From NCBI GenBank assembly GCA_040751795.1, contig JBFMHR010000005.1, forward strand, positions 74,282-138,281: DNA of 64,000 nucleotides, written 5' to 3'. Shown here piece after piece: positions 31,484-64,000 of the stretch (position 1 is its first letter; each line of letters opens with the position of its first letter). A program made the translations under genes and the position numbers. A model generated the notes under the pieces. It was given only the letters and a program-made list of their open reading frames with translations, made no database searches and was not told where the DNA came from. Source of the stretch: Thermoplasmatota archaeon. GTDB taxonomy: Archaea; Thermoplasmatota; Thermoplasmata; UBA10834.

Positions 31484-31561
31484 TATATTGCGACCTTGGT
31501 CGAGAGAATGCGCTCGTTCGTATTAATGTGACGATGGCACCGTCTGTATGTGGTTAATCTT

Positions 31562-32623
31562 ATGACTGAGCACTGTCCTCTGCATGGTGTGGCCAATGTC
31601 TGGGGACGCCTGACCGAGGTCGTCGATCGATTCTTCCCACTTGATAGCCCACGAAGGAAGGTAGTCCAGCTAGTATCCGTAGTCCTGTTAGTCGAGGGCA
31701 TTTCGGTTCTTCTCCTCTTTTCCTACGTCGGCCCTCTGCTCGGGCTCATCTCCATTCTACTCGGCGCGGGTCTCATGGCTCTGTTCTTCAGAGCTGAGGA
31801 GGAGCAGCGAGCGCAATCATATGAGCCGCTTGGCATGCGAATCGTATCGACACTCACTAGGAGTATTGGCGGCGAGTATGCGTTGATGGTTCTCGGCGCG
31901 GTTCTGATCATTCTTGTGGTCCTATACAACGCATTTGTCTCGGAGACCCCGGACTACGGAGACGTCGACGTCATAATAATGGTGTTCAGCGGACTGTTGA
32001 TAGTCTTCCCATTCGTGCCAGATCAATGGCGGATTGAGGCGACGTTCGCAGTAGTGTTCATCGGATTCGTCACTCTGCTGTTGGCTGTTCCTCAAGCAAT
32101 CACATCTCTGGGTGGCGAGGGAGACGCTAGCTCCATAGGCAATTGGTATGTCCACTACATGCTCGCGGCCCCATTCGCATCAATCTTGGATCTACTAGGG
32201 ATTCCATCGAGTTCAATCGGGAATCTGGTGACTCTGCAATTCCAGGACGGATCCATTCACACACTGGAGATATCTGCATATTGTGCTGGCCTCTATTCAT
32301 TCTCGATTTTCTTGTCCGCGTTCTTCTCGTACGTATTAGTTCTTGAGAAGCTCAGGGCCAGTGTCTTGGCGGCAGTTCTTGGACTGGGCGTCTTGGTTGC
32401 CTATCTGGGGAACCTCTTCAGGATGGTAGTCGTGGGCGTCGTGGGATACTACTGGGGAATAGAAGCGCTGCATTGGGCTCACCAGAATGCTGGATGGATC
32501 ATCTTCATATCATGGTCGGCGTTGTTCTGGTGGATTATCCTCAGCCGCTTCAGCAGCGATGTGCCCGCGAGAGAAGGTCAGCTGAGTCCAGAGGCGACCC
32601 GAGAGCATGAGGAGACTGACTGA
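31562..32623 (+). CDS. Exosortase/archaeosortase-family polytopic membrane protein (archaeosortase candidate)
   Basis: About 8 TM helices, a conserved-looking Cys in ISAYCAGLYSFS, and an N..R pair in GNLFRMV consistent with the Cys/Arg/Asn catalytic signature of this family. ATG at 31562 with a TATA-like GTATTAATG about 30 nt upstream. First gene after the GC drop. Confidence 0.5.
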   Translation: MTEHCPLHGVANVWGRLTEVVDRFFPLDSPRRKVVQLVSVVLLVEGISVLLLFSYVGPLLGLISILLGAGLMALFFRAEEEQRAQSYEPLGMRIVSTLTRSIGGEYALMVLGAVLIILVVLYNAFVSETPDYGDVDVIIMVFSGLLIVFPFVPDQWRIEATFAVVFIGFVTLLLAVPQAITSLGGEGDASSIGNWYVHYMLAAPFASILDLLGIPSSSIGNLVTLQFQDGSIHTLEISAYCAGLYSFSIFLSAFFSYVLVLEKLRASVLAAVLGLGVLVAYLGNLFRMVVVGVVGYYWGIEALHWAHQNAGWIIFISWSALFWWIILSRFSSDVPAREGQLSPEATREHEETD

Positions 32624-32769
32624 CGCGCCCCCTCCAACAGACTCGTCGTCTTGACGAATGCTGGCGTTGATATCTTAGTCGATGTGGCTGATGCACACCG
32701 CTTCATGCTTCACGTTAGTCTATGAGTACGAAGCGTGGCCCCATCAATCGTCTTCGAAGCCGCACTTTC

Positions 32770-33768
32770 CTATAGCGGCTTGGACTCGGAGGGCGGGAAG
32801 AATCTGCGCTTGAGAATCCACGAGCCTACGCGGAATGGATGGGCCTTGATCAGGCTTCTCGTGTTGCAGACCATCCAGCAATCCATGTTGCAGTTCGTCA
32901 CGGCCTTTCTGAGATCGTATTCGTCGATGTTCGCCGCAAATTCGTCCCAACTGCGGTGTTGGGTGATGTTGCCGAGCTTCTTGTTCATCACATTGCACGG
33001 ATAGACATCCCCATTTGGCGCTATGAAGACGTACTCTTTTCCGGCCTCACATGAAGATGTATATCGGTGTCTCTCGCCGACGTCGATTATCCCGTTTGTG
33101 TGATATGCTCTCAGCCAGTCCTTCGCGTGTTTCGAATGGAGCTGGGCTTCAACGACTGAGGCTATGCTATTCGAGTCACTGATCCCACTGCTCGTTTCAG
33201 TAGGGTTGTCATCTTTGCAGAAGTAAACATCAGAGTTGTGGACATGGACGCACGTGAATTCGACGTCAAGGCCGCGAGCCAGGGCAAAGACGTCTCGTAC
33301 TTCCTTTGAATTCTCACGCATGATGGTCATTGCGATTCTTAGGTCGCGTATCCCGAGATTCTTGAGGGCAGTCACTGTGGTCAGGGCCTTATCATAGGCT
33401 CCTTCAATTCCTCTGATGGTATCGTGTGTCTTTCCTATGCCATCGATGGACACACCAACGCCCACGCGAGGGTGGAAGTGCATTATCTCCTTGATCGTCG
33501 ACGTGATTCGCGCAGTCAGAAACCCGTTCGTCGAGAACACTATCCGAGAAGATGGGACAATGCTGTGAATCTCTCTTATGACTTCTACTAAGTCATGGCG
33601 AAGAAATGGCTCTCCGCCGGTTATGTTGATTGTTTTGAGGGATGGCGGTATCTTGTGATAATCCGCAGGTGTCATCTCTGCGCCAGGATCCAGCTTCCAG
33701 ATGTTACACATGCTGCACTTGGAATTGCACCTGTAAGTGACAGCGATAAAAGCCTCTCGGATCCTCAC
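32770..33768 (-). CDS. Radical SAM enzyme with SPASM-like C-terminal domain
   Basis: YRCNSKCSMCN is a CxxxCxxC motif near the N-terminus. GGEPFL and STNG motifs are present. C-terminal cysteines (CEAG...YPCNVM...CNMDCWMVC). Confidence 0.7.
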   Translation of the reverse strand: MRIREAFIAVTYRCNSKCSMCNIWKLDPGAEMTPADYHKIPPSLKTINITGGEPFLRHDLVEVIREIHSIVPSSRIVFSTNGFLTARITSTIKEIMHFHPRVGVGVSIDGIGKTHDTIRGIEGAYDKALTTVTALKNLGIRDLRIAMTIMRENSKEVRDVFALARGLDVEFTCVHVHNSDVYFCKDDNPTETSSGISDSNSIASVVEAQLHSKHAKDWLRAYHTNGIIDVGERHRYTSSCEAGKEYVFIAPNGDVYPCNVMNKKLGNITQHRSWDEFAANIDEYDLRKAVTNCNMDCWMVCNTRSLIKAHPFRVGSWILKRRFFPPSESKPL

Positions 33769-33891
33769 ATCAGTTTATGAGCGAACAAGGTCTATATATC
33801 TATTGTTGGCCTATAGCCAGGTCTGCGAGATCCGGATTTCTGATGGATCTTGCTGGTCTGCGCGGCTCGTGAACCGAGAGGTCTGTGGCGA

Positions 33892-35112
33892 ATGCGGAAC
33901 ATGAGAGTTCTGATGCTTGCACCGGAGTTCCTTCCCGTCAGAGGAGGTGTCGGCAACTACATTGCAGAGATATCAAAGCGGGTCCCGCACGATGTGGAAA
34001 TGTACGTTGTGACTCCCAGGCAGGGCACAAATGAGTCGGAACATGCACAGATCAACGGCAATGAGGATTTCGTGTCTTCAGACAATGTTCACGTGGTGTA
34101 TCTTGGAGAAGCACAGGACTACTTCTTCGGCAATTTCCCATTTCAGGTCAACTGCGGATTTGAATTGAGAAGAATGATTCGCGATTTGAGGATAGATATC
34201 GTCCATTCTCACAGCGCGATGCCCGACTACTTCGTTTCCCCGGACTCCACCGGGGTTCCGTTCTTGACCACCATTCACACTACCCTTGAGGGACACAAGA
34301 ACGCCCTGAAGGCGTCTGGAAGCAGATTCACGGAGCTTTCGATGCACGAGAGGTTCGCTCTTCTCCTCGCACCCGCTCTGAAACGCTTCGAGGACGCATA
34401 TTACAGTAAGAATCGACACTATTCAACAGTCTCAGAATGGGGCAGGGAGAGAATCGTTGAAGAGAAGAAGATACCCCGCGACAGAGTCCGAGTGATTCGA
34501 CCAGGGGTTGACACATCCATATTCAGCCCTTCAAAGAGAGAAGTGCCATTAGAGGCGATTGACGACATAGAGTCTCCAAGAGTCCTGTATCTCTCTAGGA
34601 TGGCAACCAGGAAGGGCATATACCTCCTTCTCAAGGCTATTCCTAGGATCCTCAAGAGACTGGACGCTCACTTCCTCATCGCTGGATCTGGGACACTCCA
34701 GGCAGAGTTGGTCCCGCGGAGCAACACAACGTTTCTAGGACAAGTTCCAATGTCACATCCCCCACTTCTCTATGCCAAATCCGATGTCTTCGTGTTGCCA
34801 TCGCTCTATGAGAATTTGCCGGTCTGTCTATTGGAATCGATGGCGTCAGGTTGCGCTGTTGTATGCTCGGACGTAGGCGGTGTGAGGGAGGTGGTCGATC
34901 ATGAGAGGACCGGATTGGTCATTAGGCCGAATGACATCACATCCATTGAGACTGCCATCATTCGTATGATTGAGGACGACAATCTCAGAAGAGAGATGAC
35001 AAGGAATGCGATGCAATCAATCACTAGGGAGTTCAAGTGGGAGTCGACAGCATCACAGACAATGGCTCACTATCAAGACATCCTTGATGGAGTGGAAAGG
35101 ACCAGTGAGTGA
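33892..35112 (+). CDS. Glycosyltransferase family 4 (GT-B, retaining)
   Basis: N-terminal MRVLMLAPEFLPVRGGVGNY. C-terminal E-x7-E region (ENLPVCLLESMASGCAVV). A TATA-like box lies in the divergent intergenic region. Confidence 0.75.
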   Translation: MRNMRVLMLAPEFLPVRGGVGNYIAEISKRVPHDVEMYVVTPRQGTNESEHAQINGNEDFVSSDNVHVVYLGEAQDYFFGNFPFQVNCGFELRRMIRDLRIDIVHSHSAMPDYFVSPDSTGVPFLTTIHTTLEGHKNALKASGSRFTELSMHERFALLLAPALKRFEDAYYSKNRHYSTVSEWGRERIVEEKKIPRDRVRVIRPGVDTSIFSPSKREVPLEAIDDIESPRVLYLSRMATRKGIYLLLKAIPRILKRLDAHFLIAGSGTLQAELVPRSNTTFLGQVPMSHPPLLYAKSDVFVLPSLYENLPVCLLESMASGCAVVCSDVGGVREVVDHERTGLVIRPNDITSIETAIIRMIEDDNLRREMTRNAMQSITREFKWESTASQTMAHYQDILDGVERTSE

Positions 35113-35139: not shown

Positions 35140-36333
35140 ATGGTGAGCACGTATTTCCCGCCCTATCATGCGGGCGGGGATGCAATGATGGTGAAATACC
35201 TCTCTGACGAACTCATGCGTAGAGGACACGAAGTCGCTGTCTTCTCAAACCCCTCCATCTATCGTCTGCTGAAGTCCGCGGAACCGAAGAAGGATGATAG
35301 AACGGACGCGCCGTCGATTCATGCTTGCGAATACTCACCTTTGTCGGGCCGGCTCGAACTATTCGCCGACTATTTCCTGGGATTGTCTGACAGAGCATCC
35401 AAGCACCTGCGTACCCTGGTCAGGGACTATCGGCCGGATGTCGTGCACTGGCACAATACCAAGGGATTCATGAGCACACCGGTTCGTGTAGATGGTCCGA
35501 TATCGTTGTATACCGCTCACGATTACTATGCATTCTGCCCTAGGACGAATCTAATCACGCCTAACAGCATCTCGTGCCTAAGTCCAGCTTACTGTCAGCT
35601 ATGTCTGTTAAGGTGGCACAAGTTGCCGCAGCCATGGAGATGCGGAGGTCGAAGGGTCCTTAGATTACCCTCCGATACAAGAGTCATAGCTCCATCTCAA
35701 TACATGGCAACGAGACTGGAGGCGGAAGGCATCAAGAGCCCCAGAGTAATCAGGAACTTCGTTCTGGACCGGGGCATCGTTTCTGGACCAACACATAGGG
35801 ATTCTATGACCTATTTGGGGGTTCTTGAACCCCATAAGGGTTTGGGGACCTTGATGGACGCATTCATGAAGAGTGCATCGAGCCATGATTTCAACCTGAA
35901 CATCATCGGGCAGGGTTCAATGAAAGGGTCTTTGGAGAGCAGGGCTTCGAAGAGCGGCTTGTCAGACCGAATTCGCATCCACGGGTTCATCCCCTACAGC
36001 CAACTCGATGAGATTCTCAGAGGGACAGCAGCTCTCCTGGTGCCATCCGAATGGCCTGAGAACTCTCCCCTCGTGGTACTGGAGGCCTTGTCCAAGGGAA
36101 TCCCCGTGATAGGTTCGCGTGTGGGTGGGCTGCCAGAGATCATCAATGAGGCGTCTGGTTCTCTTCTGTTTGAACCTGGAGATGTTACGCAACTCTCAGA
36201 GGCAATGCAAACAGTCTGGAGTGACGGTGACTTCTCCAGCACTCGCCAGCGGAAGGCCAGAGTCTCATACGAGTCCATGTTCACCCCTGATGCGCATATT
36301 AATGCGTATCTCAGATTGATACATAGCATCTGA
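35140..36333 (+). CDS. Glycosyltransferase family 4
   Basis: FPPYHAGGDAMMVKYL N-terminus and EWPENSPLVVLEALSKGIPVIGSRVGGLPE C-terminal GT4 signature. 27-nt spacer after the previous GT4 with a GGAGGT element. Confidence 0.75.
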   Translation: MVSTYFPPYHAGGDAMMVKYLSDELMRRGHEVAVFSNPSIYRLLKSAEPKKDDRTDAPSIHACEYSPLSGRLELFADYFLGLSDRASKHLRTLVRDYRPDVVHWHNTKGFMSTPVRVDGPISLYTAHDYYAFCPRTNLITPNSISCLSPAYCQLCLLRWHKLPQPWRCGGRRVLRLPSDTRVIAPSQYMATRLEAEGIKSPRVIRNFVLDRGIVSGPTHRDSMTYLGVLEPHKGLGTLMDAFMKSASSHDFNLNIIGQGSMKGSLESRASKSGLSDRIRIHGFIPYSQLDEILRGTAALLVPSEWPENSPLVVLEALSKGIPVIGSRVGGLPEIINEASGSLLFEPGDVTQLSEAMQTVWSDGDFSSTRQRKARVSYESMFTPDAHINAYLRLIHSI

Positions 36334-36948: not shown

Positions 36949-38073
36949 TCAGCCTCCGCTCGCACCTGTCAAAGGTGGACTGAGAGCATCGAGCAATGCC
37001 TCTACCACTGTCGACACCTCATCACGGGTCATTTGAGGAAACATTGGCAGAGATAGCACAGACTCAGATACAGCCTCCGTTATTGGCAGTTTGAAATCAT
37101 GGCTACTTTTCTTGTACGACTCCTGCAGATGGACGGGTACGGGATAATGTATGCTTGTCCCTATTCCTCTCGAATTCAGTTCCTTCTGAAGGCGCTGTCT
37201 GTTCTCCGTTCTGATGACGAATTGATGATAGACATGTGTGGCATGTGGTGCTTCGATGGGCAGGACTATGCTCGCATTCCCTAATCCGTTCCGGTACATT
37301 CGGGCTATGTCTCTGCGTTTCGCATTCCAGTCATCAAGATGTCCCAACTTCACTCTCAACACTGCCGCTTGAATCTCGTCGAGTCTGCTATTAATGCCTA
37401 CTGTTTCGTAGTAATATTTCTGGGATTGTCCATAGTTGCTCATCTTGCTCACTTTCTCTGCAATTTCCTCGTTGCTTGTCACCACGATTCCTGCATCTCC
37501 GTAAGCGCCCATGTTTTTCGTCGGGTAAAAGCTGAAACATGCAGCGTCTGCTAGTGACCCGACCCTCCTGCCTTGGTACGTGGCGCCATGTGCCTGGCAC
37601 GCGTCTTCGATGACAAAGATGTCCTTGTCTTCAGCAATCTCCATGATTTCATCCATTCTTGATGGATGTCCGTAGATGTGGACCGGGAGAATCGCCTTCG
37701 TCCTGTCCCCGATTTTTTCTCGTATTTTTGAGGCATCGATGCAGTATGTATGGGGGTCAATATCAACTAGAATTGGTCTTGCTCCATTCCTCGTTATGGC
37801 ATCGACAGTTGAAATGAACGTGTGAGCAGTTGTGATCACTTCATCACCCGGGCCAATTCCAAGCGCCCTAATTGTCGTCAGAAGGGCATCTGAGCCTGAA
37901 TTGACTCCAATGCCAAACCTCGTTCCCACATATGCGGAAAACTCCGATTCAAAGGCTCTACATTCCGCGCCATTGACAAACTGGCCAACGGTGAGCACCC
38001 TCTCAATTGAGTCGAGAACAGCCTCTCCAATCTCTTCAAGTTCTCTCGAAAGGTCGATCGATTTCACAGACAT
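36949..38073 (-). CDS. DegT/DnrJ/EryC1/StrS-family PLP-dependent sugar aminotransferase (FdtB/QdtB/WbpE-like)
   Basis: 374 aa with the characteristic family layout. Candidate PLP-Lys at SFYPTKNMGAYGDAG. Confidence 0.85.
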   Translation of the reverse strand: MSVKSIDLSRELEEIGEAVLDSIERVLTVGQFVNGAECRAFESEFSAYVGTRFGIGVNSGSDALLTTIRALGIGPGDEVITTAHTFISTVDAITRNGARPILVDIDPHTYCIDASKIREKIGDRTKAILPVHIYGHPSRMDEIMEIAEDKDIFVIEDACQAHGATYQGRRVGSLADAACFSFYPTKNMGAYGDAGIVVTSNEEIAEKVSKMSNYGQSQKYYYETVGINSRLDEIQAAVLRVKLGHLDDWNAKRRDIARMYRNGLGNASIVLPIEAPHATHVYHQFVIRTENRQRLQKELNSRGIGTSIHYPVPVHLQESYKKSSHDFKLPITEAVSESVLSLPMFPQMTRDEVSTVVEALLDALSPPLTGASGG

Positions 38074-38147: not shown

Positions 38148-39095
38148 TTACTCCCAATTGACCTCATAAGTATCATACACCGTCGCTCTCGCGCCAAAGG
38201 TGCTCTTGTAGTCTGATAGACTGGAATTTAGATATTGGCCTGCATTTTCTGTAGAAATCCCGAAATCAAAGTACCTCTTGTCGATATAGTATTCGTTTAT
38301 CAAATAGTCTAGCACGCAGTCCACAACGTGCGATTTCCTTCCCGCTTCGGTTGAGGCGATGTACTGAGTGTGCGCGACGTTCCTGCTTTCATACATGATC
38401 ACACCTCCTTCCATGCGCCCGTCAATCACACCGGCGAACAGTCTTATGTTCTCCGGGAATCTCTGAGCTAGAAGAATCATCTCTTCCTTTGTGTGCGTAG
38501 GTCTGACGCCGTGTCTAGATTCCAAACACTTCTTCTCGATTTCCATATAGTTTCCGAAATCGGAGCTTTCCTCGACCTCTGTGCCACGAGACTGAGCCTT
38601 CCTAACACACCACCGACGTTCCTTGGCGAAAGGTGTCCTTTCTGGCATGAAAATAGTGGAGGAGACATCTCGCCTAACTAGCTTCGCATCCGTGAGAAAG
38701 AGGGCGTACAAATCCTCTTCTGCTGGAATGGAATGATAGATGTGTGGTATAGCTTTGTACACGAGCTTCTTGATGCCCATCTCCTTCAGGTGTTTCCCTA
38801 AATCATGAAAGAGATCTACCATGTCCGTGGCCCTCAGTCTGCTATCCGTTATAATTCCCCCGAACGTTAATCCTGCATGACTTGTCATCACGTCTCCTTC
38901 AATAGTGGCTGGCATGACTGCCGTTAAGTCCATGACATCGAAGAAGAATAGCAGAGAACTGTCCCTGAATCTATCCGAATGGTAGTCCATGTACTTCCTA
39001 TCGAAGAGGAATAGTCCATTTCTCGAAGCCTTAACGAATTGATTCCAGCTATCTTCAAGTTCGGGACTATATGCGGTGATTCTGAACATATCCAA
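38148..39095 (-). CDS. FemAB/BioF2-like GNAT-fold acyl(aminoacyl)transferase candidate
   Basis: 315 aa. Two-lobed layout and local similarity pattern recall the Acetyltransf_6/FemAB clan. Weak call from sequence alone. Confidence 0.35.
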   Translation of the reverse strand: MDMFRITAYSPELEDSWNQFVKASRNGLFLFDRKYMDYHSDRFRDSSLLFFFDVMDLTAVMPATIEGDVMTSHAGLTFGGIITDSRLRATDMVDLFHDLGKHLKEMGIKKLVYKAIPHIYHSIPAEEDLYALFLTDAKLVRRDVSSTIFMPERTPFAKERRWCVRKAQSRGTEVEESSDFGNYMEIEKKCLESRHGVRPTHTKEEMILLAQRFPENIRLFAGVIDGRMEGGVIMYESRNVAHTQYIASTEAGRKSHVVDCVLDYLINEYYIDKRYFDFGISTENAGQYLNSSLSDYKSTFGARATVYDTYEVNWE

Positions 39096-39106
39096 CCCTT
39101 AGTGCC

Positions 39107-41160: not shown

Positions 41161-41238
41161 AATCTCACCTTCTGCGCGCCAAATGCGGCTCAAACGACAT
41201 TTGCATATCACCATACACTACGTTTGCTGTTCCGCTAA

Positions 41239-44100: not shown

Positions 44101-44101
44101 G

Positions 44102-46467: not shown

Positions 46468-46626
46468 AGGAATAGAGGAGTCTGGGTACGGTAGCTGCAG
46501 GATTCTTGCCTCTGGTTACAGGTAGCTAGCTATTGACATTGGAGAAACGCTGATGTAGCGGTGCTCATATACGCCGATTAGGTAACTGGTTTGCGAGAAG
46601 ATAGGAATCATTCGAGTTATGAAGAG

Positions 46627-55520: not shown

Positions 55521-57311
55521 TCAAGATTGAAAGGCAATAATCCTATTGTCGGAGGGTCCTCCGATATACACAACATTCGAATCATCTAGAACGGTATCCA
55601 CCTCATTGCTGTCGAGAAATATCCGTCCTTGAGGGTAGTTGTTCACACCTAGAGCGCTCCATTCATCAAGCAGCAAGTTGATGCTTTCGGGGCTCAGCTG
55701 TTCAGATTCAGCGAGCCGACGCGGCAGACTGGGATCCTGCGCGTAATCATACAGAGCGCGCGCAATATAGGAGATACGCTCGTCAGACCGAATATTCATA
55801 TCAAGGCCGCAAGTATCATGTGCCCATGTGATGGCATCGAATTCGTACAATTCTGTATCATGCCTGACTCCCGTGAGCGTATCAGTTGCGTAACTGAATG
55901 GAAATGACACTATCAGCACCGCAGAGAGGATGATGACAAGTGCCTTTCTCATTCGTGGTCTTCGATATACAGCTGCACACGCAGCGCCAACACCTAATGC
56001 CAACGGTATCTCAGAGAAGTCATATGTGCGGTAGATGAGCGCATGCCCCATCTGCGCCGAATCCTCTAGAATTGCCAGAAGAAGGAACATGAAGATGGGC
56101 AGCAGGAATCCAAGCGGGACAGACCTGTATCTTGAGTGTGACTCAATTAGGTACTCCATTCCGTACCAGCCAACACCAACGACTATCGCCATACAGAATG
56201 CTAGGATCATCACGTAGTGCGGGGCAGCTTGTTCGTATTCGAACATGGGGTTAATGTAATCAATGATGAAGAGGGAGAACACAAGCGTCGCCGGGATGGG
56301 GGCGAAGGACACGCGGTATCTCGATTCCTTATTCAGGTAAAGGTAAGTTATTGCGACTATGACCGCAAGAGAGCCGCCAATCATTGCGATCTCCTGAACG
56401 CTATCGGCGTAGGCTAGACGGTTCAATGAGTTCATGGAGTAGTAGGCATAGGTGACAAGTGTCGTGGCAATCATTGCCACCAGATCACGCACATGACGGG
56501 TTCTCAGTACCTGCGCCTTGGCAGCAAAGGCAAGGGAGACCAGAGTCAGATACCATAGCGCCAAGTATACGATTGCCGCAATGAGGTGGTGGACAATTGG
56601 GAGGACGAGTAGAATAGTCATGCTGAGCAGGAACATCCTGATATCGCTACGGCTGATGTATAGATAGATTATGAATGCGATGAGGGCTACGCCGAGCGAC
56701 TCCTTCCAGGCTGACCCGGATAGAAACACGAACGAGCCAAACAAGCCGAGTACAAAGGATGATAACATTGCAGCAATGGCGTTCGAAGAGACTTTGAGTG
56801 CAACTGCATAGATTCCCACAACGGTAAGCACTGAAAATGCCGCAACCAGAAACTGGGCCACCCAGAATGGCGAAGTCCCTAACATTAGTGCTGCAAATGC
56901 CAGAATAAGGTTGAATGCAGGTGTTATCACGCTGTGAGAATCTGCGTAGAATGCATCAGAGGGATATGAGAGGCCGCCGCTCGAAATGATGTCCTCGGCA
57001 ATCCGACTCTCAGTCATGCCATCATTATTGAAGGGGAATGGAGAAATTGCGAGTGGCACCAATCGAGTAGATAGGGCCATGAACACCAGCGACAGTATAA
57101 TGGCACGCCGCATTCCTCCAAATCCTCTTATGGACTTCCCGATGCTAAGGATTCTCGCAATGAGTGGTTGTCTCGAGTTGTTCTGATGCACAGTTGGAGA
57201 TTCATGTTCCGCTTCATTAAAGGGCTGTCCTTCCTGCCTGATAGGATTTAAGGAAGTGCGGTTGGCCACCTTTGGGTCTGAGTCCAATCCGGGGGATTTC
57301 ATGATATGCAT
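55521..57311 (-). CDS. Polytopic membrane protein (about 13 TM plus C-terminal soluble domain), paralog of 49338..51098; candidate GT-C-like glycosyltransferase
   Basis: Shares first-loop motifs with its paralog (FNNDGMTESRIAEDI, GLSYPSDAFY). Possible alternative start at 57113 (MRRAIILSLVF). Confidence 0.45.
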   Translation of the reverse strand: MHIMKSPGLDSDPKVANRTSLNPIRQEGQPFNEAEHESPTVHQNNSRQPLIARILSIGKSIRGFGGMRRAIILSLVFMALSTRLVPLAISPFPFNNDGMTESRIAEDIISSGGLSYPSDAFYADSHSVITPAFNLILAFAALMLGTSPFWVAQFLVAAFSVLTVVGIYAVALKVSSNAIAAMLSSFVLGLFGSFVFLSGSAWKESLGVALIAFIIYLYISRSDIRMFLLSMTILLVLPIVHHLIAAIVYLALWYLTLVSLAFAAKAQVLRTRHVRDLVAMIATTLVTYAYYSMNSLNRLAYADSVQEIAMIGGSLAVIVAITYLYLNKESRYRVSFAPIPATLVFSLFIIDYINPMFEYEQAAPHYVMILAFCMAIVVGVGWYGMEYLIESHSRYRSVPLGFLLPIFMFLLLAILEDSAQMGHALIYRTYDFSEIPLALGVGAACAAVYRRPRMRKALVIILSAVLIVSFPFSYATDTLTGVRHDTELYEFDAITWAHDTCGLDMNIRSDERISYIARALYDYAQDPSLPRRLAESEQLSPESINLLLDEWSALGVNNYPQGRIFLDSNEVDTVLDDSNVVYIGGPSDNRIIAFQS

Positions 57312-57860: not shown

Positions 57861-59033
57861 ATGTCAGTGCGGCTAATAAGAGTGGTAATCTTCCACAATC
57901 TGCCAACATCATACAGACTCCAGTGGTTCCAGCACATTCTCCGAGACCCCGACCTCGACGTTAGGATATTCCTTACTGGACGACCCAGGTCGAATCGTCC
58001 GTATTGGGTCGATGCTCCGGAATTCCGAGATGGGCGGGTTACAGCCCTTCGCGGACTGGGCTTCCCGCTCAAAGGCCTAGACAATGACAGGTACAATATC
58101 AATCCCGGACTCTTGAGAGTCCTCGATGGGCGCCCAGATGTAGTCATGCTGTTCGGATACGCTGAGCCGACCAACCTCGCGGTCGCAATGCTTTGTCGAC
58201 TGAGAGGGATTCCTTACATACTGTCTGCCGAAGTGTCAGATGTCTGGGGCCAGTCTCTGACTGGAAGGATAAGCATGCCTCTTGTCAAGCGAGTAGTCAG
58301 GAACGCAGCTGGTCTAGCTCCGGCTAGCACGACGTGTGCTCGGTTCTTCGAGAGTCTTGGCGGAAATCGTGAGTCTATGTCGATTATTCCATGTGTTCCC
58401 GACGTTGAACCTCTCAGACGTGCGAGGGAATCGCTAGGATTAGATGCATCGATTATCAAGGATCGTTTGAATCTGAAGGGGATGTCCATCGTTCTGTTCG
58501 TTGGGCGATTGCACGACTACAAAGGGGTGCGCGAGGCAATCGAGGCGCTCGGAATAGTAAGGCGATCAAGACCTGACGTCGTGATGGTGATTGTGGGGAG
58601 CGGACCTTTGGGGAGTTATGTCGAGGAAATGAGCAGACAGCTGGCGCCTAACCTCATGTTCCTCGGAACTGTCGATGACGCTACTCTTCGGGACTTGTAC
58701 TTGGCATCGGATATACACATCATGCCTTCATGGCATGAGGCCTTTGGCGTCGTCTGTGCTGAAGCGCTCGGGTATGGAGTGCCATCAATAGTCACGCGAA
58801 CCTCAGGATGCAGCGATTTGGTGACCGATGGGGAGAATGGATACATCATCAATCCTGGAGATGCTCAGGAACTCGCCCATGCGATTATCGTGTCCCTCTC
58901 TGACCCGATTGCCCTCGACCGTATGAAGAAACTTGCTTTTTCGAAGTCAGAAGACTTTTCGATGAGCATCATTATGGCCAGGCTCAAGAGACTTATCCAT
59001 GAAGTGGCAGAGCGTTCACGAGTATCAAGATGA
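57861..59033 (+). CDS. Glycosyltransferase family 4
   Basis: C-terminal EAFGVVCAEALGYGVPSIVTRTSG (E-x7-E) signature. Confidence 0.75.
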   Translation: MSVRLIRVVIFHNLPTSYRLQWFQHILRDPDLDVRIFLTGRPRSNRPYWVDAPEFRDGRVTALRGLGFPLKGLDNDRYNINPGLLRVLDGRPDVVMLFGYAEPTNLAVAMLCRLRGIPYILSAEVSDVWGQSLTGRISMPLVKRVVRNAAGLAPASTTCARFFESLGGNRESMSIIPCVPDVEPLRRARESLGLDASIIKDRLNLKGMSIVLFVGRLHDYKGVREAIEALGIVRRSRPDVVMVIVGSGPLGSYVEEMSRQLAPNLMFLGTVDDATLRDLYLASDIHIMPSWHEAFGVVCAEALGYGVPSIVTRTSGCSDLVTDGENGYIINPGDAQELAHAIIVSLSDPIALDRMKKLAFSKSEDFSMSIIMARLKRLIHEVAERSRVSR

Positions 59034-59373: not shown

Positions 59374-60654
59374 ATGTCGGATGCGGGAAATGGAACTGCG
59401 AATGTCATCAAAGATGCCTATGTCGAAGCCAGTAAGGAGACTCGCACGAGCGACTTGCCCACAGTCTACTTCCTGGGCGGCCACCATCCGTCAAACGAGC
59501 CATTCATACGATCTCCCCCTTCGAATGTGAGACTGTGTTCAAGGGTGACTGCGAAGGAATTCGAGGAATTCGGTAGGCTCAAACAGTATAGTGGCATGTG
59601 GCCGGTAATGAAGAAGACAAATGATGCTCTCTACAGATCCATTGGCATGCCGCGCCTTCTTCCTGTATTCGGCAGATACGACCTCGTGCACACGAATGGC
59701 TCAGTGATACCTTTGTGTCCCGGCCCATGGGTTGCCAGCATAGAGAACCCTTCAGCATTCTATGGATTCGATGAGAGGTGGCATGAGATTCCGCGTATGA
59801 GGAAACGGCTTGCATCATTCTTGATATCGGAGAGATGCAGGGCAATAATGCCATATTCAGAGGCATCAAAGAGGTACCTGATGATGGGGCTAGCTGACTG
59901 GAAAGAGACCCTCGAACTCAAGACCGAAGTCATTCCCCTAGCGATTGATAAACGCCTCATAAGGAAGAAACCTGAGGACTTGAAGGCTAGGGATGTATCT
60001 GAGAAGATGCGATTCCTCTTCGTTGGCAATCACTTCTTCGACAAAGGCGGACGGGAAGTCTTGAGAGCTTTCCGCAACATTCGTGATTATCACGACTCTG
60101 AACTCACAATCGTCACTTCCGCGCCACCGCACCACTCCAAGGAGTTCCAGGAGTACATACCTAAGATCAAGGCCGAGAAGGATGTAAGATTCTATCATAC
60201 TGGTATTCCAAGGTCTGAGCTAATGAAGCTCTATGACTCATCGCATGTGTTTGCGTTCCCATCATATATGGATCAAGTCCCGTTCGTATTCCTTGAAGCT
60301 ATGGCGGCAGGGTTGCCTCTGATAGGCTCCAACTCCTACGCGATGCCAGAGATGTCAATCGATGGCTCTAATGGCTTCGTTGTTGAGAGTCCTTGGGTTG
60401 CATTTCCTAAATCAGAGTTGAGAACTGTGCGCCATCTCGTCGCCTATCGCTCTGCAGTACTCGAGGAACGTAATTTCGACGGAGTTGTCGAGAACCTGAT
60501 TGATAAGATGAAGTTCCTGATTGACCACGAAGATACAAGGATGATGTTCGCCAGGGAGTCACTTGAGATGGTGATTAATGGCAGATACTCTTTGGGTTGC
60601 AGGAACAAGGCGTTGTCTGCCGTATACTCTAGGAGTCTGCCGAGAATTCGATGA
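59374..60654 (+). CDS. Glycosyltransferase family 4-like
   Basis: C-terminal PFVFLEAMAAGLPLIGSNSYAMPE signature. The N-terminal half is divergent. Confidence 0.6.
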   Translation: MSDAGNGTANVIKDAYVEASKETRTSDLPTVYFLGGHHPSNEPFIRSPPSNVRLCSRVTAKEFEEFGRLKQYSGMWPVMKKTNDALYRSIGMPRLLPVFGRYDLVHTNGSVIPLCPGPWVASIENPSAFYGFDERWHEIPRMRKRLASFLISERCRAIMPYSEASKRYLMMGLADWKETLELKTEVIPLAIDKRLIRKKPEDLKARDVSEKMRFLFVGNHFFDKGGREVLRAFRNIRDYHDSELTIVTSAPPHHSKEFQEYIPKIKAEKDVRFYHTGIPRSELMKLYDSSHVFAFPSYMDQVPFVFLEAMAAGLPLIGSNSYAMPEMSIDGSNGFVVESPWVAFPKSELRTVRHLVAYRSAVLEERNFDGVVENLIDKMKFLIDHEDTRMMFARESLEMVINGRYSLGCRNKALSAVYSRSLPRIR

Positions 60655-60981
60655 TAGTTTCATAGAGCGGGGCAGCCGATTGACGATTCTGGATTCATAA
60701 TCATCCACCAGAAGGGCCTGGTCATAGATATTGAACCCCAGTGTCCATCCCGAGCATATATCATTTGAACTCGACTTCGATTCGAACCACCCCGTTGCCC
60801 ATTCTCCGGTGTTGTACAGAAGTGGACGGACTTATGTGGCCAACGCTCGGCCGGGAGGAGGTTCCCACAGACTCTGTTGGGACTTGAACACAGAGGCCAT
60901 TTTTCCCACGCGATTCACCCAACCCGGTCTATTAATGGAGAGGATTATTATCTTCGATGCCTCTCCAAGCTTGGCTTCGAC

Positions 60982-61962
60982 ATGATTATCTCTAGGACTC
61001 CTTTGAGGGTCAGCCTCGCTGGCGGAGGCACGGATATGGCCGATTACTACCGCTCAGGTTTCGGGGCGGTCACTGCGTCCGCAATCAAGAAGTACATGTA
61101 TGTGACAGTGAACAAGAGGTTCGAGGACAACATCCGTGTCAGTTACTCCAAGACTGAGATCGTTGCTACCCTTGATGCGCTCGAGCACGGGATTGTCAGA
61201 GAGTGCCTCAGGAAAGTGGGTATAAGGAGCGGAATCGAGGTTACAACAATAGCAGACATCCCCTCGAAGGGCACAGGCCTGGGCTCGTCCTCCGCGCTTG
61301 CAGTGGGACTCCTGAATGCTCTATATGCCTTCAAAGGGTATCGAGCCTCTCCGAAGAAGCTCGCCGAGGAGGCGTGCGAGATCGAGATTGAGCAGCTGCA
61401 TGAGCCAATCGGCAAGCAGGATCAATATATGGCTGCCTATGGAGGGCTTCAGCACTTCAGGTTCAATGCGGATGAGACCGTACTTATAGACCCTGTCGTG
61501 TGTCCTGCGAAGACTAAGCGGGATATTGAGCAGCACCTGATGTTGTTCTTCACTGGCCGAAGCAGGAACGCTAGGGATATTCTGACAGCCCAGAAGAGCA
61601 ACGCAGGCAAGAAGAAGGAGACGCTCGACATCATGCGCGACCAGGCTGTCAGCCTCTTCCAGGACCTTGTCTCACTCCAGGTCGGCCGGATAGGGGAGGT
61701 CCTCAGGGAGGGGTGGAACCTGAAGAAGTCCCTGGCCGAAGGCATCTCGGACAAGGAGATAGATGCACTCATGGAGAAGGCGATGACTGCGGGAGCAGTC
61801 GGTGGCAAGATCACAGGGGCTGGGGGAGGAGGATTCATGGTGCTCTTCGTTCCTCCTGAGCGGCAATGGGGCGTGAGGAACGCACTCGTGGACCTCAAGG
61901 AGGTAGAATTCAAGATTGAACCTCAGGGTTCACGGATAATCTATGTCGGAGATGAGATGTGA
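60982..61962 (+). CDS. GHMP-family sugar kinase, D-glycero-D-manno-heptose-7-phosphate kinase (HddA)-like
   Basis: MIISRTPLRVSLAGGGTD N-terminus, GHMP motif PSKGTGLGSSSALAV, and C-terminal KITGAGGGGF. Confidence 0.75.
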   Translation: MIISRTPLRVSLAGGGTDMADYYRSGFGAVTASAIKKYMYVTVNKRFEDNIRVSYSKTEIVATLDALEHGIVRECLRKVGIRSGIEVTTIADIPSKGTGLGSSSALAVGLLNALYAFKGYRASPKKLAEEACEIEIEQLHEPIGKQDQYMAAYGGLQHFRFNADETVLIDPVVCPAKTKRDIEQHLMLFFTGRSRNARDILTAQKSNAGKKKETLDIMRDQAVSLFQDLVSLQVGRIGEVLREGWNLKKSLAEGISDKEIDALMEKAMTAGAVGGKITGAGGGGFMVLFVPPERQWGVRNALVDLKEVEFKIEPQGSRIIYVGDEM

Positions 61963-62555
61963 TGGGTGACGTGGATCATCGGACTGTCAAGTATCTTGAT
62001 GAGGTCATCCGTTCCCTTGAGGGCATGAAGAGAGACTTCCCCTCGAAGGCGACCGAGATCGTCTCAATACTGACTCGAGCCAGAACCTCCGGAAAGAAGG
62101 TGTACGTGATGGGGAACGGCGGCAGCGCATCGACCGCCTCGCACATGGCGTCCGACCTCAACAAGGGTGCCAACAGGGACGATGCCCCCAGGTTCAGAGC
62201 GATAGCGTTGACCGACAACATCCCATTGATGATGGCCTGGGCGAATGATTCCTCCTATGATGATGTGTTCGTGGAGCAGCTGAGAAATCACCTCGAGGAG
62301 GGCGACGTGGTCATAGGGATCAGCGGTTCTGGCAACTCCCCGAACGTGTTGAAGGCGGTCGAATATGCCAACACGAACGGGGCAGTCACGATAGGCATCA
62401 CCGGCTTTGACGGCGGGAAGCTGGCCAAGATGGCGAGAGTCGCCTACGTCGTCCCTTCGCACTGCATGCAACAGGTGGAGGACGCACACTTGATTATGGA
62501 ACACATGCTCTCCATGATACTGAGGGACTCCCCGGAATGCGCCTGCGGGCGATGA
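61962..62555 (+). CDS. gmhA: Phosphoheptose (sedoheptulose-7-P) isomerase, SIS domain
   Basis: VYVMGNGGSASTASHMASDL and VVIGISGSGNSPNV are GmhA signatures. The start overlaps the upstream stop by 1 nt. Confidence 0.8.
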   Translation: MGDVDHRTVKYLDEVIRSLEGMKRDFPSKATEIVSILTRARTSGKKVYVMGNGGSASTASHMASDLNKGANRDDAPRFRAIALTDNIPLMMAWANDSSYDDVFVEQLRNHLEEGDVVIGISGSGNSPNVLKAVEYANTNGAVTIGITGFDGGKLAKMARVAYVVPSHCMQQVEDAHLIMEHMLSMILRDSPECACGR

Positions 62556-62582
62556 GGACCTCCGAGATCGGAATGAGATACA

Positions 62583-63170
62583 ATGCCCACCCACTTCACG
62601 TCCCCGAAGGGAAGGATTGCAGTCTTCGTCGACAGGGACGGAACGATATGTTTCGACAGACACTATCTTGCGGATCCAGATGGCCTTGAGCTGATACCTA
62701 CGGTGATTGAAGGCATCAAGAAGCTCAATGACGTGGGTCTGCCCGTCATAGTGGTGACGAACCAGTCCGGAATAGCCAGGGGCAAGTTCGACGAGAAGCG
62801 ATTGGATGAGATCCATGCGAGGTTGCGCGGGCTTTTGTCTGCAGGCGGCGCTCACATAGACGACCTCTTCTTCTGTCCTCATATGCCGGATGCAGGGTGC
62901 AGATGCAGGAAACCCGCTGTGGGGATGCTCCTGGATGCAGCCGATAGACATGGAATCCACCTGAAAGGGTCGTTCATGATTGGGGATAGGATGATGGACA
63001 TCGAGATGGCACACAAGGTGGGTGCCAGGGCCGCGTTGGTTCCGGAGCCCGGCGACCAGTACGACGTCGCGTCTGAGATGAGACTGTCGAGGGAGAGACC
63101 AGACATCCAGTTGAATACGTTCGTCGAAGCAGTGGATTGGATTCTGGGCAATATCAGAGATGAACCGTAG
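62583..63170 (+). CDS. gmhB: D,D-heptose-1,7-bisphosphate phosphatase (HAD family, GmhB-like)
   Basis: VFVDRDGTI HAD motif I. VVTNQSGIARG. CPHMPDAGCRCRKP zinc-binding loop typical of GmhB. Confidence 0.75.
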   Translation: MPTHFTSPKGRIAVFVDRDGTICFDRHYLADPDGLELIPTVIEGIKKLNDVGLPVIVVTNQSGIARGKFDEKRLDEIHARLRGLLSAGGAHIDDLFFCPHMPDAGCRCRKPAVGMLLDAADRHGIHLKGSFMIGDRMMDIEMAHKVGARAALVPEPGDQYDVASEMRLSRERPDIQLNTFVEAVDWILGNIRDEP

Positions 63171-64000
63171 TGTTCTCGCCCACGACCAGTCTCTCTCCTT
63201 TGGGGAGCATGCCCGCCGAACTGAGTATCTTCGACCCTCTGCCGATGACGCTTCTGACGATCTTGCGTTCCACGTTGATGACGGCGTCCTCCATGACCAT
63301 GGAGTCGTCGACCTCGGCTGACGATATCTGGCACCTGTCCCCCACTGCGGTGTAGGGGCCGATGTACGCCCCTGGGCCTATCTTGCACCCTTCGCCGATT
63401 ATCGCCGGTCCCCTGACGACGGACCTTCCAGTGACTACCGTCCCCTTGCCAATCCTGACCCTCCCAACCACAGAGGAGCCAGATTCGATCTTTCCATCGT
63501 TCAATGATTCGATTCCATCGAGGATGAGGTGGTTCGCATCGAGAATGTCATCAGGCCTTCCTGTGTCCTTCCACCATCCCTCGACGCGGTGAGGCGTGAC
63601 CTTGTAACCCGCATCTATCAGCATGGAGATCGCGTCGGTTATCTCCATCTCATTCCTCCAGGAGGGCCTCAACCTGGGATACACCTCGAAGAAGGTGGAG
63701 TTGAAGGCGTAGATACCTATCACTGCCAGGTCCGACTTCGGTTCCTTCGGCTTCTCCACGGTCCTGAGCACGGTCTTCCCGTCCTCAGACAGCTCCGCGA
63801 TGCCATACCTCTGGGGCTCCTTCACGGGCATGAGGGATATCACACAGTCAGCCTTCTCTTCGGCCATCTTCTTCGGGATCTCCCGGATGCCCGATTTCAG
63901 CAGGTTGTCTCCGAGGTAGACTATGAACGGGTCGTCACCCATGAACTCCTTTGAGCAGTTCACCGCATGGGCGATACCCATGGGCTTCCCCTGCACGATG
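63154..64000 (-). CDS. Sugar-1-phosphate nucleotidyltransferase with C-terminal left-handed beta-helix, partial (N-terminus beyond window end)
   Basis: The C-terminal part of an NTP-transferase domain (LGDNLL, EKPK) is followed by LbH repeats (IGKGTVVTGRSVV, IGEGCKIGPGAYIGPYT). Convergent with gmhB, 17-nt overlap. Confidence 0.7.
   Translation of the reverse strand, partial: IVQGKPMGIAHAVNCSKEFMGDDPFIVYLGDNLLKSGIREIPKKMAEEKADCVISLMPVKEPQRYGIAELSEDGKTVLRTVEKPKEPKSDLAVIGIYAFNSTFFEVYPRLRPSWRNEMEITDAISMLIDAGYKVTPHRVEGWWKDTGRPDDILDANHLILDGIESLNDGKIESGSSVVGRVRIGKGTVVTGRSVVRGPAIIGEGCKIGPGAYIGPYTAVGDRCQISSAEVDDSMVMEDAVINVERKIVRSVIGRGSKILSSAGMLPKGERLVVGENTTVHL

Follow-up and report, generated by a model that had tools for sequence, protein, structure and literature searches.

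A low-GC glycan-biosynthesis island of a Thermoplasmatota archaeon as a probable allele of a position-fixed, content-variable surface-glycoconjugate locus

We analyzed a window of 64,000 nucleotides from a Thermoplasmatota archaeon (Thermoplasmata; UBA10834; GenBank assembly GCA_040751795.1, contig JBFMHR010000005.1, positions 74,282 to 138,281 of the forward strand), in which an island of low guanine-plus-cytosine (GC) content carrying glycan-biosynthesis genes adjoins GC-rich core DNA. The island, from 31.55 to ~63.15 kb, is in our judgment likely to be one allele of a clade-wide surface-glycoconjugate locus that is fixed in position and variable in content. Across the clade this locus is old, stays at one position and keeps a conserved backbone, which consists of an ArtC-like archaeosortase (the Art-like protein), two membrane proteins of GT-C type resembling oligosaccharyltransferases (OST), here named mem586 and mem596, an AglH-like transferase and one GT4 glycosyltransferase, often with a radical SAM (rSAM)/SPASM protein and a Wzx flippase.

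The composition of the window changes in a single step. GC content was 0.653 at positions 1-31500 and 0.515 at positions 31501-64000. With a single change point fitted to 100-bp bins, the best position was exactly 31500 (variance reduction, 3.04), and none of 500 bin permutations reached this step, the maximal reduction being 0.14. Mean GC at third codon positions (GC3) was 0.92 in 20 core genes (range, 0.83 to 0.97) and 0.58 in 25 island genes (0.49 to 0.77), with zero overlap between the two ranges (Mann-Whitney p = 1e-8). GC1 was 0.63 in the core and 0.53 in the island, and GC2 was 0.45 and 0.42; these steps are far smaller than that of GC3, indicating that the difference is mainly one of synonymous codon usage. 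GC-corrected tetranucleotide usage gave correlations of 0.78 between chunks of the core, 0.78 between chunks of the island and 0.43 between core and island. At the junction, GC3 fell from 0.95 in the last core gene, which encodes an MFS transporter, to 0.61 in the first island gene, and the nucleotide alignment with one relative (L001) ended at position 31537. An abrupt GC drop near 31.5 kb had been proposed in a first-pass annotation made from the sequence without database searches; GC step, GC3 and tetranucleotides all agree with it, and composition was not uniform across this position.

Related loci were collected from GTDB, JGI, ENA, Logan and NCBI assemblies by scans for the MFS gene and by homologs of the backbone proteins. 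The junction could be compared in seven relatives (L001, L002/L012, L003, L004, L006-8, L009 and L014) from varied samples and assemblers; the closest relative, L005, whose MFS protein is 92% identical to that of the window, ends short of it. The resulting data describe variation between species and genera. The flank order MFS-Lrp-DUF835-Kelch-subtilase-UppP-PKD-Zn-ribbon was syntenic in L001-L004, L006, L009 and L014, with core identities of 52 to 84%, a range that also holds for the MFS anchor itself. Beyond the MFS gene, all seven relatives dropped below the GC of their own core. In six of the seven (L002, L003, L004, L006, L009 and L014), the first gene past the junction encoded the Art-like protein and was directly followed by a mem586 homolog. 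At the far end, the relatives carried a mem596 homolog (34 to 55% identity in L006, L009, L010, L012 and L014) and the AglH-like gene. The stretch in between held GT4 genes, in many cases with an rSAM/SPASM gene and in some with a Wzx gene. The backbone genes of the window are dispersed, and not at the island ends as in the relatives. In L001, the rSAM/SPASM gene abuts the MFS gene in place of the Art-like gene, in inverted orientation compared with the window.

The AglH-like gene was the most conserved backbone gene (55 to 74% identical in the relatives). The second GT4 gene of the island, a semi-conserved backbone member, had homologs of 40 to 49% identity in L002/L012, L003, L004, L006, L010 and L014. 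The rSAM/SPASM protein recurs among islands of this type, with homologs of 48 to 52% identity in L001, L004, L009 and L010, and Wzx homologs were present in L002 and L009. A right flank of ABC ATPase and rml genes was seen in L012 and L006. On the 468-kb contig of L002+L012, the island has core-GC DNA on both sides: GC3 was 0.62 in the island, 0.84 in the flank of ABC-ATPase, RmlA, RmlD, RmlC and RmlB genes and 0.86 in the core beyond.

A step of 14 points in GC and 34 points in GC3 within a 66-bp spacer, in sequence taken from a metagenome-assembled genome (MAG), could also stem from chimeric assembly or mis-binning, by which two organisms of unlike GC would have been joined at ~31.5 kb. The relatives make this extremely unlikely. 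The MFS-to-island junction, with GC changing in the same direction, was found in seven independent assemblies, including contigs of 468 kb and 1.98 Mb; the L002+L012 island lies between stretches of core-GC DNA on one contig; the right-hand RmlA of the window is core-like, being 75% identical to its L012 relative; and an artifact shared across JGI, ENA, Logan and NCBI sources is implausible. The chimeric join, which the first-pass annotation had named as a finding that would overturn its reading, is refuted by these seven concordant relatives, and the reading of the region as an island stands.

The content of the locus varied considerably. Island sizes were ~12 kb in L006, ~20 kb in L002+L012 and ~31.6 kb in the window. 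Accessory functions comprised a 3-amino sugar, heptose, methyl and pyruvyl groups in the window; a phosphonate module (PEP mutase, TPP-decarboxylase and Fe-ADH) and an FrhB-like/pyruvyl-transferase pair in L012; a polysaccharide deacetylase and an ATP-grasp enzyme in L014; and epimerases in L006 and L009. The gene content of L012 suggests a phosphonate-decorated glycan in that lineage. Its module (positions 950-3396 of Ga0209706_10000002) encodes a PEP mutase with a fused cytidylyltransferase-like domain, a thiamine pyrophosphate (TPP)-dependent decarboxylase and an iron-type alcohol dehydrogenase (Fe-ADH). With lower-GC glycan loci of differing gene sets behind an identical junction in seven relatives, the earlier claim of a content-variable envelope-glycosylation island was confirmed. 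The comparison with close relatives that had been proposed for strain variability revealed variation between species, in a position-fixed, clade-wide locus and not as a strain-specific acquisition. The contigs of L001 (1-1500), L003, L010 and L011 end in or at the island or hold island DNA only, that of L001 stopping 1.5 kb into it; these breaks agree with a tendency of assemblies to break up where a locus is hypervariable.

We then considered how such variation could have arisen. Identity to the window was 48 to 53% for the Art-like protein, 34 to 36% for mem586 and 34 to 43% for mem596, and these values were flat whether the MFS protein of the relative was 76% or 52% identical. The rSAM protein of L001 was 52% identical to that of the window, though the core of this relative is ~80% identical. 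An island-only contig, L010, was closer (mem586, 52%; mem596, 55%; pyruvyl transferase, 61%; one GT4, 62%; AglH, 74%). Since backbone identity is thus decoupled from the flanks, the pattern, as read from protein identities, indicates replacement of deeply diverged alleles and not vertical co-inheritance. Neither tRNA genes nor Rfam matches nor island-flanking repeats were found in the window, and no integrase was detected among the window genes scanned against Pfam. Thus, recombination in the conserved flanks and backbone genes is favored as the route of exchange, with a minor part for insertion sequences (IS). An integrative-element model was considered and rejected, there being no integrase, tRNA, Rfam family or flanking repeat.

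In a broader form, this alternative would make the island a mobile element, be it an integrative element, a plasmid or a provirus, that was acquired recently from a donor of low GC not belonging to the clade. Its atypical GC and tetranucleotide usage, the ISH3-family remnant and decayed genes inside it, and a second low-GC insertion, of 1.2 kb, at 24.3-25.5 kb, by which small insertions are seen to happen, would fit such an origin. However, integrase, tRNA target and flanking direct repeats are missing, and position and backbone are kept across relatives whose core proteins are 52 to 84% identical. Moreover, all named or located homologs of the Art-like protein and all located GT-C homologs came from Thermoplasmatota records or from contigs with the same locus, and import from a distant low-GC phylum or any donor outside the clade is therefore unlikely. 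We consider a recent mobile island very unlikely, and a long-standing locus with replaceable alleles remains the preferred reading.

The low GC was not peculiar to the window. Core and island GC were 0.676 and 0.543 in L001, 0.623 and 0.522 in L002, 0.573 and 0.516 in L003, 0.574 and 0.520 in L004, 0.577 and 0.534 in L006, 0.601 and 0.573 in L009, and 0.573 and 0.519 in L014. In eight of eight genomes, the window included, island GC was under that of the own core and never above the lowest sampled core (0.573), and the deficit was concentrated at GC3. Low GC has long marked this locus in each of the lineages sampled. It may reflect either a shared allele pool fed by unsampled lower-GC members of the clade or a substitution equilibrium of the locus itself. 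In the latter case the low GC would be intrinsic and not a foreign trace; a possible cause is that homologous recombination between deeply diverged alleles is suppressed, so that GC-biased gene conversion would be lost, and another is selection at synonymous sites that is relaxed or favors AT. The narrow range of the islands (0.52 to 0.57, against cores of 0.57 to 0.68), their position below each own core and no higher than the lowest one, the concentration of the deficit at GC3 and the apparent confinement of the backbone genes to the clade all agree with an intrinsic cause. On the other hand, lower-GC donors within the clade are perhaps unsampled, and the L009 island is higher (0.573; GC3, 0.75), so that island GC partly tracks the host. 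We regard an intrinsic origin as a real possibility, somewhat short of probable.

The right border of the island was less sharp than the left one. Over the last 3 kb of the window, GC was still low but rose slightly, to 0.55-0.58, and the heptose genes and RmlA (60877-63996) had GC3 values of 0.66 to 0.77, intermediate between the island (~0.55) and the core (0.92). Relatives have an ABC ATPase gene between the AglH-like gene and RmlA, where the window has two GT4 genes and the heptose block. These genes may have been inserted at the right edge, or they may belong to the island from an earlier time and have partly ameliorated. Since the window RmlA is 75% identical to that of L012, a core-level identity, it is probably the right flank; the L012 RmlA gene sits in core-GC DNA just outside the island. 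The island of the window thus probably spans ~31.6 kb, from 31.55 kb to ~63.15 kb.

We next examined the backbone proteins. The Art-like protein passed the exosortase/archaeosortase signature TIGR04178 (52.5, cutoff 23) and PF09721 (46.2 bits, cutoff 25.7). It stayed under every subtype cutoff, including those of ArtA and of ArtC (TIGR03762, 80.1 against 100). C245 (in YCAGLYS), R291 (in LGNLxRM) and H311 were invariant across six clade homologs, among which no second invariant arginine was found. In ArtA, Cys173, Arg214 and Arg253 are catalytic, and Cys173 and Arg214 were shown to be essential in Haloferax (PMC9263693). The Cys-Arg spacing of the Art-like protein resembles that of ArtA Cys173/Arg214. 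Its family comprises at least 233 clusters at ~50% identity, with cluster labels such as "archaeosortase C (PEF-CTERM variant)" at JGI and "exosortase/archaeosortase family protein" of Thermoplasmata or Thermoplasmatota MAGs at NCBI.

Neither mem586 nor mem596 had any Pfam or NCBIfam match, and no sequence similarity was detectable between them. AlphaFold 2 models built from family alignments had a predicted local distance difference test score (pLDDT) of 79 and a predicted template modeling score (pTM) of 0.76 for mem586, and of 80 and 0.80 for mem596. All significant Foldseek matches in the PDB were GT-C enzymes. For mem586 (21 of 21), STT3, PglB and AglB were at the top, with query TM scores (TMq) of 0.50 to 0.56; for mem596 (14 of 14), the matches were PglB, STT3, AglB, ALG12, DPY19 and Aft enzymes. 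For both proteins together, STT3, PglB and AglB came first (TMq, 0.44 to 0.56), followed by DPY19, ArnT, ALG9/12 and mycobacterial Aft. The predicted structures thus place the two proteins in the GT-C superfamily, as relatives of OST at the level of the fold but outside the STT3 family, in agreement with the label "GT-C-like" that they had received before. Indeed, neither protein matched the STT3-family models (Pfam STT3 and TIGR04154), and the WWDxG motif was absent from both. In mem586, D49 in the first loop was the sole invariant acidic residue, and in mem596, N95, N96, D97, E101 and D107 were invariant, the acidic ones lying in the first loop. An exhaustive profile search with the mem586 family retrieved 1045 cluster representatives at E<=0.001, of which 445 reached E<=1e-30; ten distant members gave sub-threshold Pfam matches only, to GT-C-clan families such as DUF6541, GT-C_AftD and PTPS_related. 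The NCBI annotation of mem586 (AB1793_08135) has 386 amino acids, compared with 586 in the open reading frame (ORF) analyzed here. Homologs aligned from residue ~1-14 of the 586-residue ORF (P0002 with 99% coverage; L010; L011), and the deposited gene model probably begins ~200 codons too late, with loss of the first transmembrane helices and of the invariant D49. As two GT-C families unmodelled by Pfam and NCBIfam and linked throughout to an archaeosortase-family gene, mem586 and mem596 are candidates for new transferases of lipid-linked glycans.

The features of the island and its left border are collected in Table 1. The first-pass annotation had assigned the genes to a single glycan theme, and nearly all of its calls were confirmed by Pfam, NCBIfam and PDB comparisons, among them the five GT4 and one GT2 glycosyltransferases, Wzx, the rSAM/SPASM protein, the methyltransferase, the pyruvyl transferase with its FrhB-like neighbor and the AglH-like protein. 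In addition to the genes it listed, we found the FemAB-like GNAT, the GH130-like protein and the hexapeptide-transferase remnant.

Table 1. Features of the low-GC island and its left border, with positions in the window
Feature	Position	Strand	Evidence
Last core gene, MFS transporter, conserved left anchor	30203..31483	-	Pfam MFS_1 91 bits; GC3 0.95
Composition boundary, 66-bp spacer between divergent genes	31484..31549	.	Change point 31500
Exosortase/archaeosortase-family protein, ArtC-like, first island gene	31550..32623	+	PF09721 46 bits
Radical SAM/SPASM protein	32770..33768	-	Radical_SAM + SPASM; no NCBIfam equivalog
GT4 glycosyltransferase	33850..35112	+	Glycos_transf_1 121.8 bits + Glyco_transf_4
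GT4 glycosyltransferase, semi-conserved backbone member	35140..36333	+	Pfam
DegT-family sugar aminotransferase	36949..38073	-	PF01041 422 bits
FemAB-like GNAT (Acetyltransf_6)	38148..39095	-	PF13480 29.9 bits
GH130-like protein (beta-mannoside phosphorylase fold), sub-threshold	39107..40018	-	PF04041 22.8 bits, cutoff 26
PglD/NeuD/VioB-type sugar N-acetyltransferase	40022..40705	-	TIGR03570 194 bits, cutoff 160.8
FdtA/QdtA-type dTDP-4-keto-6-deoxyhexose 3,4-ketoisomerase	40702..41214	-	PF05523 189.7 bits
Wzx-type lipid-linked oligosaccharide flippase	41239..42771	-	Polysacc_synt_3 + Polysacc_synt; WzxE 85 bits, sub-threshold
Gene-poor stretch, no assignable ORF	42772..44101	.	GC 0.56, above neighboring DNA
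GT2 glycosyltransferase	44102..45013	-	Glycos_transf_2 109 bits
Truncated ISH3-family transposase remnant	45514..45894	-	tblastn matches to annotated ISH3 transposases
Hexapeptide acyltransferase, probable remnant	45817..46467	+	Weak C-terminal Hexapep 19.6 bits; adjoins IS remnant
SAM-dependent methyltransferase	46591..47553	+	Methyltransf_25 + Methyltransf_11, 70-71 bits
GT4 glycosyltransferase	47907..49166	+	Pfam
GT-C-fold membrane glycosyltransferase (mem586)	49338..51098	+	No Pfam/NCBIfam match; predicted fold
FrhB-like Fe-S flavoprotein	51249..52535	-	FrhB_FdhB_N/C + Fer4; PDB FrhB-type proteins
Polysaccharide pyruvyl transferase	52874..54145	-	PF04230 115.7 bits; CsaB, WcaK sub-threshold
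AglH/WecA/MraY-family polyprenyl-phosphate HexNAc-1-P transferase, initiating enzyme	54535..55503	+	PF00953 101.8 bits
Second GT-C-fold membrane glycosyltransferase (mem596)	55521..57311	-	No Pfam/NCBIfam match; predicted fold
GT4 glycosyltransferase	57861..59033	+	Pfam
GT4 glycosyltransferase	59374..60654	+	Pfam
GHMP-type heptose-7-phosphate kinase, HddA/WcbL-like	60877..61962	+	GHMP_kinases_N/C; NF049969 HddA 165 bits, sub-threshold
GmhA-like sedoheptulose-7-P isomerase	61959..62555	+	SIS_2; TIGR00441 117 bits, sub-threshold
GmhB-like heptose bisphosphate phosphatase	62583..63170	+	HAD; NF006506 163 vs cutoff 178
Long-form RmlA, glucose-1-P thymidylyltransferase, N-terminus past window end	63154..64000	-	TIGR01208 321.8 vs cutoff 320.25

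Two sugar modules can be recognized among these genes. For a 3-acetamido-3,6-dideoxyhexose, the window encodes RmlA, the isomerase, the aminotransferase and an acetyltransferase of the PglD family. The best solved relatives of the DegT aminotransferase were 7b0d, QdtB (350 bits), DesV, WlaRG and WbpE, and on this likeness it is probably a C3-specific enzyme of the FdtB/QdtB type. The isomerase had 5tpu, FdtA (2pa7) and QdtA as top PDB matches. The top PDB matches of the acetyltransferase were PglD, PerB and VioB, with QdtC weaker. Of the FdtA/FdtB/FdtC-like trio proposed earlier, the isomerase and the aminotransferase were therefore retained, and the acetyltransferase is of the PglD/PerB/VioB type and not an FdtC/QdtC ortholog. 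RmlB was found in the right flank of L012.

The heptose module had likewise been proposed earlier, and three of its four enzymes were found, a GmhA-like isomerase, an HddA-like kinase (best PDB matches 3k85, 4n3o and WcbL) and a GmhB-like phosphatase, all under the NCBIfam equivalog cutoffs; no heptose-1-phosphate nucleotidyltransferase is encoded in the window. The last gene had been counted as a heptose enzyme, which proved incorrect: it meets the long-form RmlA model TIGR01208, with a match that covers profile positions 78-353. We also considered whether it could supply the absent heptose nucleotidyltransferase, but the equivalog match argued against this. The heptose set is left without its nucleotidyltransferase, since the last gene is RmlA and serves the dTDP-sugar branch. 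The sugar combination had been considered new for an archaeal N-glycan. However, heptose occurs in the N-glycan of Thermoplasma acidophilum, according to PMC11407970, which cites Vinogradov 2012. The novelty of the sugars is thus weaker than first held, being limited to the particular combination and dependent on the assumption of an N-glycan product.

The remaining genes of the island could be assigned less precisely. The FrhB-like and pyruvyl transferase genes form a conserved pair; they are adjacent in the window (51249-54145) and in L012 (7313-9719; opposite strands). Reduction of an enolpyruvyl or pyruvyl group is one possibility for the FrhB-like partner. The FemAB-like GNAT had a weak match to the PEP-CTERM-associated FemAB family TIGR03019 and possibly acts on the glycan as an aminoacyl or acyl transferase, and the GH130-like protein had weak PDB matches to beta-1,2-mannan phosphorylases. 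Decayed transposase pieces had also been described inside the island; one was recovered, an ISH3-family remnant that covers only residues 40-175 of a 389-residue transposase, and 43.0-44.1 kb gave no assignment. No ORF of 43.0-44.1 kb or 36.4-37.0 kb, nor those at 54052-54471 and 57306-57854, had a Pfam match at E<=1, and ORF 43092-43463 had no tblastn match in plasmids. The gene-poor stretch that includes this ORF possibly consists of decayed genes. We rejected as a gene the 182-aa ORF at 57306-57854 (+), which is Cys-rich and lacks family matches as well as homologs among the relatives. Most likely, mem596 and the following GT4 gene are divergent neighbors separated by 550 bp of intergenic DNA, and the ORF is a spurious product of that spacer.

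Several features of the GC-rich part of the window deserve mention. Genes for a GFO/IDH/MocA oxidoreductase, an NAD epimerase/dehydratase and a UDP-glucose/GDP-mannose-type dehydrogenase lie at 10751-13935 with core GC3 (0.94 to 0.96), and glycan-precursor genes are therefore not all in the low-GC island. A 799-residue acidic protein (14056-16455, -; isoelectric point [pI] 4.05), with weak MG2/alpha-2-macroglobulin-like and Ig-like matches, is possibly located at the cell surface and would then be a candidate target of glycosylation. The small low-GC islet (24295-25505; GC3, 0.56) lies in GC-rich core between a subtilase gene and the gene of a very acidic protein. Its rSAM/SPASM gene (24428-25363, -) encodes a protein 23% identical to the island rSAM; the site measures only 87 bp in L001, and L002, L004, L006 and L014 all lack a counterpart of the gene. 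The acidic protein adjoining the islet (25668-26339, -) has 223 amino acids, an N-terminal membrane anchor, 43% Asp+Glu and a pI of 4.05; it had no family match, and relatives share short patches only. Cytoplasmic proteins of the window have pI values of 8 to 9, which argues against a salt-in halophile. A haloarchaeal source, suggested by the high GC and the ISH3 remnant, was rejected on these pI values and on the labels of the relatives, which read Thermoplasmata or Thermoplasmatota.

Taken together, the family assignments would fit the following pathway. The AglH-like enzyme would place an N-acetylhexosamine phosphate (HexNAc-1-P) on dolichyl phosphate at the cytoplasmic face, and the five GT4 and one GT2 enzymes would extend the chain with sugars that the island would partly supply. 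One of these would be dTDP-3-acetamido-3,6-dideoxyhexose, made by RmlA, RmlB (not in the window), the FdtA-like isomerase, the C3 aminotransferase and the PglD-type acetyltransferase; the other would be an NDP-heptose, made by GmhA, the HddA-like kinase, GmhB and a nucleotidyltransferase encoded elsewhere. Decoration of the glycan would fall to the methyltransferase and to the pair of pyruvyl transferase and FrhB-like protein, perhaps also to the FemAB-like transferase, and Wzx would then flip the glycan to the outer face. Outside the membrane, the two GT-C enzymes would extend the lipid-linked glycan or transfer it to an acceptor, either a protein or a lipid, and the Art-like enzyme would process and anchor surface proteins with a C-terminal sorting signal. 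Diversity would arise by replacement of whole alleles or modules through recombination in the conserved flanks and backbone, with occasional IS activity.

A number of points weigh against the interpretation of the island as such an allele. All the biochemical steps are assigned at the level of protein families. RmlB and an HddC-type heptose nucleotidyltransferase are absent from the window, as are AglB, Wzy and a chain-length regulator. No recognizable PEF/PGF-type sorting signal was found in six adjacent core-flank proteins, most of them secreted, or by NCBIfam. The island identities of 35 to 50% could partly mean fast evolution and not replacement, and the variation was seen between species and genera and not within one population. 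Finally, the right border is placed by synteny, with the window ending inside RmlA.

The product of the locus could belong to several classes. An initiating transferase (PF00953, 101.8 bits) and a Wzx-type flippase (Polysacc_synt_3), as looked for in agl clusters, are present in the window. Among the window proteins scanned, none gave a Pfam or NCBIfam match for AglB/STT3, the oligosaccharyltransferase with the WWDxG motif, which the genome may encode elsewhere. As the window lacks AglB, Wzy and a chain-length regulator, the product may be an N-glycan, an O-glycan, a lipoglycan or a polymer. Instead of modifying proteins, the locus might make a lipoglycan of the membrane or else a polysaccharide that is secreted or forms a capsule, its Art-like gene mirroring those of bacterial PEP-CTERM/EpsH exopolysaccharide (EPS) loci. 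Such a product would suit the presence of Wzx and of a CsaB/WcaK-like pyruvyl transferase, the weak match of the FemAB-like protein to a PEP-CTERM-associated family, the best sub-threshold NCBIfam matches of the GT4 enzymes, which include PEP-CTERM/XrtA-associated and EPS glycosyltransferase families, the fact that the window lacks AglB, and the ABC ATPase that borders the island in relatives. However, neither a Wzy polymerase nor a chain-length regulator nor an export channel was identified, a pair of OST-like GT-C enzymes suits a step of transfer to an acceptor better, and the heptose of the T. acidophilum N-glycan (PMC11407970) is a precedent in this lineage for a protein-linked heptose glycan. 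We thus regard a polysaccharide product as possible but doubtful.

A more far-reaching model, which we offer as a speculation and consider unlikely, combines these elements into an archaeosortase-coupled route. Here, the two WWDxG-less GT-C enzymes, and not AglB, would transfer the hypervariable, Wzx-flipped and dolichol-linked glycan to Art-processed surface proteins or to the lipid anchor of these proteins, and the locus would keep its own low-GC equilibrium independent of the host. If true, the locus would be a natural experiment on the AT-richness of surface-polysaccharide loci. In the open-access literature searched, we found no description of an Art-like protein coupled to two GT-C proteins and an AglH-like enzyme across a Thermoplasmatota clade.

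Variable surface-glycan loci shape recognition by viruses, predators and mates and are a main component of the flexible genome, and archaeal N-glycosylation affects virus-host interactions (PMC10384203). Virus pressure, named in the first-pass annotation as the driver of such diversity, would apply to the present island by analogy with other systems. The present case adds an uncultured Thermoplasmatota clade, with a precisely defined locus whose left anchor is fixed, whose backbone is conserved and whose modules can be interchanged. The phenomenon itself was expected and does not overturn current understanding; the locus is of a known kind, and its conserved backbone is modestly new. With islands at ~0.52-0.57 and cores at 0.57-0.68 GC, it also provides a comparative system in which foreign origin can be set against a locus-specific substitution regime.

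In our reading, the locus is analogous in function to the cell-wall and agl islands of haloarchaea and to the O-antigen and capsule loci of bacteria. Among known systems, the cell-wall-associated island of Haloquadratum walsbyi is a fixed-site, variable surface-glycan island (PMC4535781), and Haloferax has a variable second N-glycosylation cluster as well as species-specific agl clusters (PMC11407970). The haloarchaeal islands resemble the present locus in their fixed site, envelope-glycan content, lineage-specific versions, atypical composition and assembly breaks, and their diversity has been ascribed to homologous recombination and mobile elements. In contrast, the window comes from another phylum and a non-halophile, and its island has no surface glycoprotein genes inside; its backbone includes an archaeosortase-family protein and two orphan GT-C proteins, and its variation is one between species and genera. 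In bacterial O-antigen and capsule loci, such as Klebsiella cps, the ends are conserved and the middle is variable, with rml genes at an edge (PMC4616057). They share with the window an initiating transferase, glycosyltransferases, Wzx, acetyl and pyruvyl transferases, sugar-nucleotide modules, rml at one edge, IS remnants, GC under that of the genome and alleles that replace one another. Unlike them, the window has no Wzy, Wzz, Wza or WaaL, its carrier is presumably dolichol, and its conserved parts are OST-like GT-C enzymes and an archaeosortase-family protein.

Archaeosortase A/PGF-CTERM and exosortase (EpsH/XrtA) PEP-CTERM loci were described by Haft et al. in 2012, as cited in PMC9723798 and PMC9263693. 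Like these systems, the window combines a Cys/Arg membrane protein of the exosortase family with glycan biosynthesis and OST-like GT-C proteins. The archaeosortase A system has an associated STT3-type oligosaccharyltransferase (NCBIfam TIGR04154). In the window, by contrast, the Art-like protein passes the family signature only, and not ArtA or ArtC; its GT-C partners are not of the STT3 family, and no cognate sorting-signal proteins were identified there. For the sugars, the dTDP-Fuc3NAc/Qui3NAc (FdtA/B/C, QdtA/B/C) and GDP-D-glycero-alpha-D-manno-heptose (GmhA/HddA/GmhB/HddC) pathways of bacterial S-layer glycans and capsules are the closest parallels. The first differs from the window in its acetyltransferase, which is of the PglD type here, and in RmlB, which is not in the window; both have an FdtA/QdtA-type isomerase and a QdtB-like aminotransferase, with RmlA adjacent in the window. 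In the second, HddC has no counterpart in the window and all equivalog scores are under cutoff, but the GHMP-type kinase, GmhA and GmhB are shared.

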